Shown here one piece after another: positions 6,080-8,096 of a stretch of 31,197 nucleotides of DNA. Below the pieces are notes generated by a model, which saw only the letters and a program-made list of their open reading frames with translations, did not search any database and was not told the origin of the DNA. Location of the stretch: IMG/VR virus record IMGVR_UViG_3300048609_000070; one strand, given 5' to 3'. The stretch comes from a virus. Within the stretch, counting starts at the first letter, position 1. Each line of letters begins with the position of its first letter. A program made the position numbers and the translations under genes.

Positions 6080-8096
6080 AGTTACCCTCTGCTTTCCTTA
6101 CTTCAGAAAGTATAGTTTTATAGGCATCTCTGTTTTTTTCCAAGAATTCGCTGACTACAAAAACTCCTTTACCAAGTATTTCGTCCCCATATTTGATAGT
6201 TGATGCCTGTTGGTCGAGGATGTCCAATGCCAATGCCTGTTCAACGAGCTCTAATTCCTTATAAAAACCCTTGCCAAAGATAATCTTTGTCTCGATTGAC
6301 CGGAAGGGTGGTGCAAGCTTATTTTTAGTTATCTTTATTTTTACTTCATTTCCAATTACCCTGTCTTGTCTTTTGATCTGCCCAATTGCCCTGATGTCTA
6401 TACGGACACTCGAAAGAAATTTTAGCGCATTTCCACCGGGTGTAATTTCATTCGGACCAAACCCAAATCCTCCAATCTTTTGTCGAATTTGATTAATGAA
6501 GATGATAAGCGTATTTGATTTTGACGCAATTCCAATCAATTTTCTGAGGGCTTTTCCCATGATTCGGGCCTGAAGTCCCATTTGCTGATCTTCCATTTCT
6601 CCGTCAATTTCTGCTTTTGGAACTAATGCTGCAACAGAATCAACAACAGCAATATCTATTTTCCGACTTTTTACGAGGTATTCGAGAATTGCAAGTCCCT
6701 GTTCACCATAGTCCGGCTGACTGATAATGAGTTTATCTTCTTTTACCCCTATCTTTTTTGCAAGTTGCAGATCTAAGGAGTGCTCCGCATCAATAAACGC
6801 GCCAAAGCTTCCCTTTTTCTGCGCTTCAGCAATGGTATGCAGCGCCAGCGTCGTGTTGTGCGTGATAACCCCATTTGCAACAAAGGAATGAGAATACTCC
6901 ATCTCGAAGTCGTAAGTCAGTTCCGGGGGTGCTTTCTCAACGGATGTGACCATATCATAATAGTAGTTTGCCTTCAGGATATCCACAGGGGTATTAATCT
7001 TTGAAAAATACTTATAATTTACACCGTTGAGCACGGAAATAATAGGATCCTCTCCTTTGATCTCCTCTTCTGGTTCTTCCTGATTGATTGTTCGAAAGAT
7101 TCCAAGGAATTGTTCTTCACGATCCTTCTTGGCAGTCCCGATTCTGGTATACAACGCTGGAAGATCCCGTTTCGCGATTGTAAGAAGCCATACGTCCTTT
7201 CCTTTTGTCAGCACCGACACGATCCCAAAATATATTTGGAGTATGAGCTTGACTTGATAAAGCATTTCCCAATTACCAGCAGAGACCTGGAAATTATTTT
7301 CATCCGTAATATTACCCAACGAATCCATCTGTCCTTTAATAAATTCTGCTACCAAGTTCTTAGGAAGCATCCGAACCTGCGATGGAATAGTTGTGCTTAG
7401 CATGCTACCAGACACGAGGTTGAATGCCTGAGAGATTCCATATTTTGCAACTGAATCAGGAAGGACCTTTTTTGGATTGAGCATTGCACCTAAAACATAG
7501 AATATATCTAACGTTCCAAGCGTTTTATGCGCCGCCACGTAATTGTTTCTTCGTGGGCATACAAGATAATGTCCAGTTTTTATTTGTGAAGATTCGATCC
7601 AAGATAGTTTGTCATAGAGTTCAAAAACAAGATGTGGATGGTTTGCTGTGCTGCTAATCACATGTCCCGATTTGGTACGTATCTTTAGAATGTCCTTCTT
7701 TCCATTGAATACAAATCTCTTGGTATCTTCGTACAGATCAAAACGGTTGAGTAAAGATATCTTCTTTTCTACGGACCCGGATGTAGCAATCGCTATTCCA
7801 CTTTTATCCATGATCTCTTTGATAGTCAAAAGACCTTGGGCTGTTGCAATATATGTGCTTTCAGGGAGACACTTTCCGGTCATTTGCGGACCATAGATCT
7901 CAACAATTCTTCCACGAGGAAACCCACCAATGCCAAGCGCCTTATTTAGAAGAAGAGACCCTGTAGGAATCACATCTACCTTTTGTGGTCGTTCATTGAG
8001 GAATAACACACACTCTTTACCGTAACGTTTTTGAAGCGCTGCAGTAATTTCGTTCATATTTTTATCGGAGAGGTCCGATTTCTTATTTTTTGACAT
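6069..8096 (-). CDS. recA: RecA/UvsX-family recombinase interrupted by an intein in the P-loop.
   Basis: Exteins rejoin as ALGIGGFPRGRIVEIYGPQMTGK|TTLALHTIAEAQKKG..., which is the RecA Walker A GPESSGKTT. Downstream RecA core motifs are present (VVDSVAAL, ARIMGKALRKL, IFINQIRQKIG). GGAGAAA ribosome-binding site. Confidence 0.9.
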   Translation of the reverse strand: MSKNKKSDLSDKNMNEITAALQKRYGKECVLFLNERPQKVDVIPTGSLLLNKALGIGGFPRGRIVEIYGPQMTGKCLPESTYIATAQGLLTIKEIMDKSGIAIATSGSVEKKISLLNRFDLYEDTKRFVFNGKKDILKIRTKSGHVISSTANHPHLVFELYDKLSWIESSQIKTGHYLVCPRRNNYVAAHKTLGTLDIFYVLGAMLNPKKVLPDSVAKYGISQAFNLVSGSMLSTTIPSQVRMLPKNLVAEFIKGQMDSLGNITDENNFQVSAGNWEMLYQVKLILQIYFGIVSVLTKGKDVWLLTIAKRDLPALYTRIGTAKKDREEQFLGIFRTINQEEPEEEIKGEDPIISVLNGVNYKYFSKINTPVDILKANYYYDMVTSVEKAPPELTYDFEMEYSHSFVANGVITHNTTLALHTIAEAQKKGSFGAFIDAEHSLDLQLAKKIGVKEDKLIISQPDYGEQGLAILEYLVKSRKIDIAVVDSVAALVPKAEIDGEMEDQQMGLQARIMGKALRKLIGIASKSNTLIIFINQIRQKIGGFGFGPNEITPGGNALKFLSSVRIDIRAIGQIKRQDRVIGNEVKIKITKNKLAPPFRSIETKIIFGKGFYKELELVEQALALDILDQQASTIKYGDEILGKGVFVVSEFLEKNRDAYKTILSEVRKAEGNCEN
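6855..7871 (-). mobile_element. Intein (339 aa) in RecA. It runs from Cys1 (CLPES...) to the terminal ...VITHN, with +1 Thr. It is large enough to carry a homing-endonuclease domain.
   Basis: Boundaries set by extein alignment to RecA consensus. Canonical intein N-terminal Cys and C-terminal His-Asn followed by Thr. Possible LAGLIDADG-like segments (FYVLGAMLNP, AEFIKGQMDSLGN). Confidence 0.75.

Follow-up and report, generated by a model that had tools for sequence, protein, structure and literature searches.

How a viral recA gene can be interrupted in the middle of its ATP-binding loop and still provide a recombinase, and whether the element responsible is still able to move, are the questions raised by a locus in the window analysed here, a whole stretch of 31,197 nucleotides from the IMG/VR virus record IMGVR_UViG_3300048609_000070. 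A first-pass annotation had placed a large intein at 6855-7871, inside the P-loop of RecA. These coordinates turned out to be exact, on the minus strand (left unstated by that annotation), and the translation agrees with the rest of its description: an insert of 339 aa that starts with Cys, ends with His-Asn, is followed by Thr and splits the Walker A motif as GPQMTGK/TT (a slash marks each intein junction). The split is in frame and directly after the Lys, and the insert has CLPESTY as its first residues and GVITHN as its last. The gene is organized as follows.

6069..8096, minus strand: recA precursor ORF, 675 aa and a stop codon, with N-extein, intein and C-extein in one frame
7872..8096, minus strand: N-extein, aa 1-75, its C-terminal end being GPQMTGK, the first part of Walker A
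6855..7871, minus strand: RecA intein, 339 aa, precursor aa 76-414, class-1 type, Cys1...His338-Asn339 and then Thr+1
6072..6854, minus strand: C-extein, aa 415-675, first residues TTLALH, the remaining RecA core and the C-terminal domain

The 675-aa product is best annotated as an intein-containing RecA precursor and the mature RecA as a protein of 336 aa. A protein identical to the precursor (P0151) is found in a 136,545-bp JGI metagenome contig. Plus-strand ORFs of 73-96 aa are also present inside 6780-7896 and are regarded as shadows of the minus-strand recA.

The flanking segments do reconstitute a RecA, as had been anticipated. Profile searches matched the N-extein to RecA profile positions 3-64 and the C-extein to positions 65-261 plus RecA_C. 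Against the TIGR02012 recA model (trusted cut-off 325.3 bits) the unspliced precursor scored 381.8 bits in two stretches and the spliced extein product 403.4 bits in a single one, covering profile positions 4-320 of 321; PF00154 was likewise matched by the spliced product in a single stretch (368 bits). The spliced junction aligns without gaps with E. coli RecA ('griveiygpqmtgkttlalh' vs 'griveiygpessgkttltlq'), and the same is true of the FIDAEH, VVDSVAAL and NQIR...GGNALKF segments. Removal of the insert restores an uninterrupted conserved host protein, the intein-less recA junction being GGTCCGCAAATGACCGGAAAG followed directly by ACGACGCTGGCGCTGCATACC. With its full-length model match, Walker A, Walker B and DNA-binding loops the host protein is a bacterial-type RecA, and the extein identity to cellular bacterial RecA is ~50-56%. 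The description of this protein as an essential recombinase was not kept, RecA not being generally essential and the gene lying here in an apparent phage replication module.

Analyzed alone, the insert was recognized by the Pfam model Intein_splicing PF14890 (58.1 bits, E 1.2e-15, cut-off 35.8), by TIGR01445 for the intein N-terminal region (31.9 bits, cut-off 24.5) and, over aa 319-339, by TIGR01443 for the intein C-terminal region (22.0 bits, cut-off 15.6). Intein blocks A, B, F and G, whose absence the first-pass annotation had named as a reason to abandon the idea, are all present, distributed between the two lobes of a Hint domain.

7542..7871, minus strand: Hint domain N-terminal lobe, intein aa 1-110, with block A Cys1 and block B
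7638..7649, minus strand: block B, T75-A-N-H78 (TxxH), within the Hint N-terminal lobe
6855..6971, minus strand: Hint domain C-terminal lobe, intein aa 301-339, with block F D321 and H328 and block G H338-N339

Column statistics over the relatives inserted at the same RecA site showed C1, D321, H338 and N339 each in 79/79 sequences, T75 in 78/79, H78 in 76/79 and H328 in 67/79. The block A nucleophile, the block B TxxH, blocks F and G and Thr+1 together make up the residue set of a class 1 intein, and Thr+1 of the C-extein serves both as the threonine of the Walker A GK-T and as the splice nucleophile. The AF2 model of the intein (pLDDT 83.3, pTM 0.86) has beta strands at aa 2-105 in the Hint N-terminal lobe and 304-338 in the C-terminal lobe. 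Its best Foldseek matches were the TliVMA intein 7qss (E 3.8e-16), PI-PfuI, the PhoVMA intein, PI-PkoII and PI-SceI, and the Hint fold was matched with probability 1.00 to many solved inteins (among them the Mxe GyrA, Ssp DnaB and Mtu RecA splicing domains). Judged by these residues and this fold the insert is a genuine class-1 intein at the RecA P-loop, one that is predicted to splice itself out.

It could be argued that the intein does not splice and that recA is a pseudogene or yields only an inactive precursor, since splicing is here predicted from sequence, Thr+1 is less nucleophilic than a Cys or Ser would be and the Walker A GPQMTGKTT deviates from the usual GPESSGKTT. However, the 675-codon frame is open, all the catalytic splicing residues are intact and conserved, and the extein similarity to RecA is full-length and above cut-off, including Walker B and the L1/L2 loop motifs. 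Besides, in the comparison with P0001 (see below) conservation of the Hint lobes is similar to that of the exteins (62% and 72% vs 67-68%), and Thr+1 is functional in the Pyrococcus horikoshii (Pho) RadA intein (PMC4513877). We give such a dead insertion hardly any credence.

The P-loop site is a known one, neither new nor unusual for inteins: insertion point c (c1/c2) of RecA/RadA, after the Walker A Lys in GxxxxGK/T, has been published (Topilina et al. 2015, PMC4513877); our intein belongs to it by its GPQMTGK/C...HN/TT register and its homology to bacterial c2 inteins. A phmmer search with the intein against 1.84 billion protein representatives gave 905 matches at E <= 1e-3, with E values from 2.4e-110 (P0001, described below) to ~1e-30 for many RecA-hosted inteins. 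A word-index homology search with the intein alone had given no relatives, which is a limit of the index since the exhaustive HMMER search found 905. Among the best 150 of these 905 representatives both intein ends could be mapped in 112; in 80 of the 112 the spliced flanks matched this RecA, the intein lying directly after GK in 78 of those 80, and most of the 72 with strict flanks have inteins of 400-435 aa. Inteins of 161-312 aa also occur at the same RecA site, and the phages Cyrano and vB_KpnS_p4727 carry GPPSAGK/C...SHN/T. About a dozen RecA P-loop inteins were listed in 2015 (PMC4513877); the 80 clusters (at the 50% identity level) within the best 150 indicate that they are far more diverse in metagenomes.

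From the large size of the insert the first-pass annotation had predicted a homing endonuclease domain and thus a selfish mobile element. The first half of this prediction holds to the extent that a LAGLIDADG-derived remnant separates the two Hint lobes; the second is not supported, as the catalytic acids and the first half of the domain have been lost.

6972..7541, minus strand: degenerate LAGLIDADG endonuclease remnant, intein aa 111-300, first-half beta sheet absent
7470..7496, minus strand: helix 1 remnant VLGAMLNPK, with Pro133 at the position of the catalytic Asp
7314..7343, minus strand: helix 2 remnant FIKGQMDSLG, with Leu185 at the position of the catalytic Glu/Asp

In the MAFFT column statistics the first acid position, occupied here by Pro133, is D/E in 68/79 relatives and the second, here Leu185, is E/D in 67/79. 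At E <= 1 the Pfam matches of the intein included neither LAGLIDADG nor HNH, both of which had been suggested as candidate profiles, nor endonucleases of any other family. PF14528 was matched by 14 of the 16 aligned RecA-site inteins (best E 4.2e-21) and not by this one, in agreement with the precomputed domains. A family profile, built without the window sequence, matched the intein in three collinear stretches (99.0, 41.9 and 43.5 bits), with nodes 1-131 corresponding to the Hint N-terminal lobe and nodes 195-318 to the central domain; nodes 132-194 and 319-381, two stretches of 63 positions, are absent. The AF2 model has a helix at 121-130 in the first half of the endonuclease and then no strands over aa 131-170, although pLDDT is 53-57 over aa 131-160 and the absence of strands there is backed mainly by the sequence deletion. 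One complete alpha-beta-beta-alpha-beta-beta-alpha unit remains at aa 171-243, that is, one of the two halves has been kept, and it is well folded in the model (pLDDT >90 over aa 171-260).

That Leu185 could be an alignment artefact was considered and rejected, the same register appearing in the 80-sequence MAFFT L-INS-i alignment and in the independent profile. For motif 1 the profile alignment stops at aa 131 and the register of Pro133 comes from the MAFFT alignment alone, its decay being additionally backed by the missing nodes 132-194 and by the secondary structure of the model. An HNH or other type of endonuclease in the central domain was also discarded; no such Pfam family was found, and both fold and profile match the LAGLIDADG type. 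An active double-motif LAGLIDADG enzyme would have two acid-ended helices, two halves and a PF14528 match, and none of these was found. The loss of the acid positions, the first half and the PF14528 match indicates that the intein is probably no longer mobile by means of its own nuclease. It would then probably be a resident passenger, descended from a selfish element that has lost the capacity to home by that nuclease.

The same truncated intein was found in P0001, where the locus is syntenic (polA-recA-orf102-orf197-orf256). The exteins of the two are 67-68% identical and the Hint lobes 62% and 72%, against 44% for the remnant. These two are the only known members of the truncated lineage, and among close relatives no allele lacking the intein turned up. 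A truncation common to a syntenic relative points to vertical inheritance of the intein. Between the window and L006, at ~60% amino-acid identity, synonymous sites are saturated.

These data bear on the alternative that the intein is currently mobile, its endonuclease active in cutting intein-less recA at the P-loop codons and the intein being copied in. With its 339 aa the element is indeed large, it has LAGLIDADG homology in its central domain (profile nodes 195-318; Foldseek matches to 7qss, PI-PfuI and PI-SceI) and the wide invasion of the site indicates that active enzymes target it. However, Pro133 and Leu185 occupy metal-binding acid positions that are D/E in 68/79 and 67/79 relatives, ~63 profile positions with the first beta-sheet half of the saddle are missing and PF14528 goes undetected. 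Furthermore, sequence change is faster in the remnant than in either the splicing lobes or the exteins, the composition is fully ameliorated (40.6% GC in the intein vs 40.5-41.3% in the exteins) and the same truncation is present in a relative with 67-68% extein identity. Current mobility thus appears improbable to us.

The best structural matches were TliVMA 7QSS, PhoVMA 7QST, PI-PfuI 1DQ3, PI-PkoII 2CW7 and PI-SceI 1VDE, endonuclease-associated VMA and RNR inteins with a LAGLIDADG-type domain at the same position of the Hint fold as here; 7qss is also matched by the family profile (E 1.4e-26). The LAGLIDADG domains of PI-PfuI, PI-PkoII and PI-SceI are active. These inteins differ from the one described here in residing in other host proteins, in having complete two-half LAGLIDADG domains and in sharing only 10-15% identity with it. 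The M. tuberculosis and M. leprae RecA inteins (sites a and b) are likewise inteins of a bacterial RecA, and PI-MtuI carries a LAGLIDADG domain; their sequence similarity is limited to the C-terminal splicing blocks. The insertion points differ, following residue 251 and residue 205 where monomers contact each other, and not in the P-loop (PMC4513877, Table 1).

Among the closest described systems are the bacterial c2 inteins (E. coli, Enterobacter and Salmonella RecA 65-486; Thermobifida fusca RecA 96-517; PMC4513877) and those of the Escherichia phage Cyrano (OV696614) and the Klebsiella phage vB_KpnS_p4727 (PQ492289), which share with ours the insertion point and the class-1 termini and are homologous in sequence. 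The precursors of the two phages have 31% whole-protein identity to the one found here. The c2, Cyrano and p4727 inteins are of ~422 aa with a clear LAGLIDADG (LMGYLIADGY and FLRGYFELEC in Cyrano), whereas the present one has 339 aa, two internal deletions and neither of the catalytic acids. The host RecA is ~30% identical overall to that of Cyrano and nearer to cellular bacterial RecA.

Very probably, then, this is a class-1 intein at point c of a phage-module recA, with a decayed endonuclease, vertically kept and presumably splicing. A 75-kDa precursor would be translated first, with its ATP-binding loop interrupted and therefore unable to act as a recombinase. An N-S acyl shift at Cys1, aided by Thr75 and His78 of block B, would be followed by trans-esterification onto Thr+1, by cyclisation of Asn339 aided by His338 and by Asp321 and His328 of block F, and by an O-N shift, the predicted products being a RecA of 37 kDa, its GPQMTGKTT loop intact, and the released 38-kDa intein. 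The ancestor is likely to be found among the ~420-aa LAGLIDADG-carrying inteins that populate RecA site c. Decay has removed both catalytic acids, the DNA-binding saddle's first half and a helical segment towards the C-terminus. The intein is most likely unable to home and would persist by vertical inheritance because its loss without a precise deletion would destroy recA. Our findings challenge nothing in current understanding. They add one more data point to the notion of ATPase P-loops as intein hot spots, and one more to the idea of a homing cycle, where fixation is followed by decay of the endonuclease and selection continues on the splicing domain.

A remnant of ~190 aa with a well-folded half is not what a pure decay model predicts, and the half-domain may have been retained because splicing requires it structurally, or because a function was kept. 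One such function would be that of a switch: the intein would be domesticated, with splicing conditional on temperature, redox, ssDNA or DNA damage controlling the RecA ATPase and the half-LAGLIDADG acting as a structural or DNA-sensing module. The precedent is the Pyrococcus horikoshii RadA intein (c1; PDB 2LQM, 4E2T), inserted at the homologous P-loop site, with -1 Lys/+1 Thr and no active endonuclease. It splices experimentally with this junction (read from the mutagenesis primers) and its native exteins regulate splicing, which makes it a precedent for conditional splicing (PMC4513877). It differs in being an archaeal mini-intein of 172 aa without an endonuclease remnant and with little sequence shared with the bacterial site-c inteins; Foldseek E values reached only ~2e-4 to 1e-3, over the Hint lobes, and independent invasion was inferred by the authors (PMC4513877). 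A switch would agree with the insertion point and -1 Lys/+1 Thr that both inteins share, and also with the good folding of the half-domain in the model, its retention in two genomes that differ by ~33% in the exteins and the second endonuclease-less intein in the adjoining polA. On the other side, the sequence itself demonstrates no regulation, no other segment evolves as fast as the remnant (44% identity), which is what relaxed constraint predicts, and retention is equally explained by rare precise deletions together with a remnant needed for folding of the Hint lobes. That the same site also houses inteins of 161-312 aa indicates that the domain is dispensable in principle. We consider it unlikely, with only a slim chance, that this phage lineage has retained an intein with a dead endonuclease as a RecA switch that releases the recombinase only under particular infection conditions, the folded half-domain sensing DNA or stress. 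If that were true, the mini-intein in polA might follow the same logic.

The polA intein, which the first-pass annotation had also reported, is real.

8875..9285, minus strand: polA mini-intein, 137 aa, aa 581-717 of the ORF 8083..11025, with junctions TGRL/C...CHN/S

It scored above cut-off with both TIGR01443 (32.0 bits) and TIGR01445 (27.8 bits), lies ~1 kb from the RecA intein and is without endonuclease. The 980-aa PolA product should be annotated as carrying this 137-aa mini-intein, and mobility is not to be assumed for either of the two. No structural genes and no tRNA genes were found within the window; by gene content alone, recA sits in a replication and recombination module, probably of a large phage. 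When 25 kb of the window was compared by megablast with the phage collection, nothing matched, and in the IMG/VR scan with the precursor the closest match was a RecA at 40% identity.

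The recA precursor was found to be split inside its Walker A motif (GPQMTGK/TT, the slash marking the junction) by a 339-aa insertion on the minus strand, exactly at the coordinates put forward by the first-pass annotation, and the translation contains the termini that had been claimed for it, Cys first and His-Asn last, followed by Thr. The parts taken from the ORF list and the translation are:

6069..8096, minus strand, recA precursor, 675 aa
within ORF 6069..8096, minus strand, N-extein (flanking RecA part), residues 1-75, C-terminal end GPQMTGK
7871..6855, minus strand, insert, residues 76-414, 339 aa, CLPESTY...GVITHN
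within ORF 6069..8096, minus strand, C-extein, residue 415 onward, first residues TTLALH

The insert alone exceeded the curated cut-offs of three intein models, namely Pfam Intein_splicing PF14890 (58.1 bits, cut-off 35.8), TIGR01445 for the N-terminal splicing region (31.9 bits, cut-off 24.5) and TIGR01443 for the C-terminal one (22.0 bits, cut-off 15.6). The spliced 336-aa product matched the RecA equivalog TIGR02012 in a single stretch (403.4 bits, cut-off 325.3, positions 4-320 of 321) and PF00154 also in one stretch (368 bits), whereas the unspliced precursor matches in two. In a comparison with solved structures, the spliced product aligned gaplessly with E. coli RecA across the junction ('griveiygpqmtgkttlalh' / 'griveiygpessgkttltlq') and the motif FIDAEH, the Walker B VVDSVAAL and the NQIR...GGNALKF loop region were kept. 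Both the intein blocks and a contiguous RecA rebuilt from the flanks, whose absence had been named as grounds against an intein, are present, and by sequence the insert-free product makes up a complete RecA. The Walker A itself (7851..7877, minus strand) reads GPQMTGKTT, the usual form being GPESSGKTT and that of a syntenic 674-aa relative, P0001, GPPMAGKTT; extein residues -2 to -5 in this P-loop are unusual.

Every catalytic splicing position is kept in an alignment of 80 RecA-site inteins (the window and 79 relatives): Cys1, Asp321, His338 and Asn339 are present in 79/79 relatives, Thr75 in 78/79, His78 in 76/79 and His328 in 67/79. The AlphaFold2 model, built from a 16-sequence alignment and of good confidence (mean pLDDT 83.3, pTM 0.86), places the beta-strand lobes of the Hint splicing domain at aa 2-105 and 304-338. 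When compared with the PDB by Foldseek, its top match was the TliVMA intein 7qss (E 3.8e-16), followed by PI-PfuI, the PhoVMA intein, PI-PkoII and PI-SceI, all of them endonuclease-associated; mini-inteins ranked lower, among them the splicing domains of Mtu RecA and Pho RadA.

The insertion point is one already known and heavily populated. Topilina et al. 2015 (PMC4513877) defined five RadA/RecA insertion points and termed the P-loop an intein hot spot; their point c, at the end of the P-loop, comprises c1 in archaeal RadA and c2 in bacterial RecA, the latter occupied in E. coli, Enterobacter and Salmonella (residues 65-486) and in Thermobifida fusca. The -1 Lys / +1 Thr junction is shared, as read from mutagenesis primers (PMC4513877), by the Pho RadA intein, for which splicing has been shown experimentally. 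When the intein was compared by phmmer with 1.84 billion cluster representatives, 905 matches reached E <= 1e-3. Among the best 150, both intein ends could be mapped in 112, which were spliced in silico; 80 of these match the RecA exteins of the window, 78 with the intein right after GK and before T/S. Where the P-loop flanks were strict (72 inteins), lengths were mostly 400-435 aa, with about ten shorter ones (161-382 aa). Two RecA-like proteins from this search, P0023 and P0028, carry a related intein in a divergent P-loop in another register (…GGEQ/C…HN/TVKTG…), upstream of the Lys and not after it, and would seem to belong to the same intein family, with the site shifted.

In the phage collection, tblastn with the precursor found RecA-like matches in 1414 records, only 3 of which covered at least 80% of it in one aligned stretch. 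Two of these, Escherichia phage Cyrano and Klebsiella phage vB_KpnS_p4727, encode a 780-aa RecA interrupted at the same point as the window (GPPSAGK/CVTADT...GIISHN/TF). Their genes (2971..5310 in the Cyrano locus L001, OV696614, and 980..3322 in the vB_KpnS_p4727 locus L002) contain a LAGLIDADG P-loop intein of ~422 aa that is unannotated in the records, and the one in Cyrano adjoins UvsY-like, gp32-like SSB and exonuclease genes.

The large size of the insert had been taken to suggest a homing-endonuclease domain and a mobile element, but its central domain is a decayed endonuclease. Its Pfam matches at E <= 1 included no endonuclease family, whether LAGLIDADG, HNH or another, while PF14528 (LAGLIDADG_3) was matched by 14/16 aligned RecA-site inteins; in precomputed domain assignments PF14528 is given for most intein-containing RecAs and is absent for the window protein and P0001. 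The family motifs LGxLxADG and FLxGYxDCE are VLGAMLNPK and FIKGQMDSLG here, with Pro133 at a column that is D/E in 68/79 relatives and Leu185 at one that is E/D in 67/79. Against a 424-node family profile built with the window sequence excluded, three segments of it aligned collinearly (nodes 1-131, 195-318 and 382-424). Motif 1 ends within nodes 132-194, which also hold the first beta-sheet half and are reduced to 18 residues; nodes 319-381, a C-terminal helical segment, are reduced to 28, and the two deletions together account for a size of 339 instead of ~420 aa. Past helix 121-130, strands are absent from the model, whose confidence is low there (pLDDT 53-57 over aa 131-160), and aa 171-243 form a complete, confident alpha-beta-beta-alpha-beta-beta-alpha unit, so that only half of the DNA-binding saddle is predicted to be left. 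Since both metal-binding acids and half of the DNA-binding surface appear to be missing, DNA cleavage is very unlikely. The initial reading therefore stands as to a genuine RecA P-loop intein and fails as to its homing endonuclease, which by sequence and model is degenerate.

The nearest relative, P0001, sits on a short contig (L006) syntenic with the window, in the order polA C-terminus, recA with intein, and homologues of orf102, orf197 and orf256 (47-79% identity). Its intein (338 aa) has the two deletions in common with the one in the window and still keeps the Asp of the second motif (DVDG). Between both genomes the exteins are 67-68% identical and the two Hint lobes 62% and 72%, against only 44% for the endonuclease remnant. 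At 40.6%, the GC content of the intein cannot be told apart from that of the exteins (40.5-41.3%) or of the window (39.8%). Synteny, shared deletions, identity pattern and matching GC point to an intein that is old and has been passed on by vertical inheritance, and the sequence comparison to a late stage of the homing cycle, with the splicing domain under purifying selection and the endonuclease drifting. An unlikely further reading, drawn by analogy with Pyrococcus RadA, is that RecA splicing is under conditional control, to which the folded half-domain, still retained, and the location in the P-loop would contribute.

The second intein that had been proposed in the nearby polA was also confirmed:

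8083..11025, minus strand, PolA, 980 aa, three-part fusion
8875..9285, minus strand, inside ORF 8083..11025, polA mini-intein, 137 aa (aa 581-717), without endonuclease domain

It interrupts the conserved TGRL/S..PNLQNI motif (junctions TGRL/CVDKDT...GFVCHN/SC) and exceeds the cut-offs of TIGR01443 (32.0 bits) and TIGR01445 (27.8 bits). Inteins have already been reported in bacterial DNA polymerase I (PMC4760082). No third junction of the form ...HN[CST] turned up when all ORFs of 150 aa or more were scanned with a crude pattern. PolA joins a family-4 uracil-DNA glycosylase (aa 23-176, TIGR00758 142.7 bits) to 3'-5' exonuclease and family A polymerase domains; a 5'-3' exonuclease domain was not detected in its 980 aa. 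Its best annotated matches are polymerases from 140-150-kb Bacillus/Lysinibacillus phages and some Pseudomonas phages (~27-30% identity over 82-87% of the length), those from the Bacillus/Lysinibacillus phages being ~29-30% identical.

An identical RecA precursor was found on a 136,545-bp JGI metagenome contig. The source is most likely a large phage. The window, however, lacks structural genes, 25 kb of it matched no known phage by megablast, and the best hit of an IMG/VR scan with the precursor was only a 40%-identical RecA. All long ORFs are on the minus strand, and the recA neighbourhood includes an SbcC/SbcD-like pair, polA, a primase zinc-ribbon ORF, a DnaB-like helicase, a DnaC-like loader and an SF2-type helicase. 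Other features are:

1363..4403, minus strand, overlapping pair of SbcC/Rad50-like ATPase (650 aa) and SbcD/Mre11-like phosphoesterase (362 aa)
11043..13307, minus strand, 754-aa ORF between polA and the primase/helicase genes
about 17900..31087, minus strand, sugar-nucleotide epimerase, aminotransferase and glycosyltransferase block, after the replication module

The SbcC/SbcD-like pair lies ~1.7 kb downstream of recA and extends the recombination module. The 754-aa ORF had no Pfam match, and its only PHROG match was a weak one to RNA polymerase sigma factor (aa 38-117, E 1.9e-6). Third-position GC is much lower in three ORFs of the sugar-gene block, 22519..23490, 24233..25246 and 28875..30212 (0.25-0.27), than in the replication genes (0.39-0.49), which suggests a segment of distinct composition that may have been acquired.
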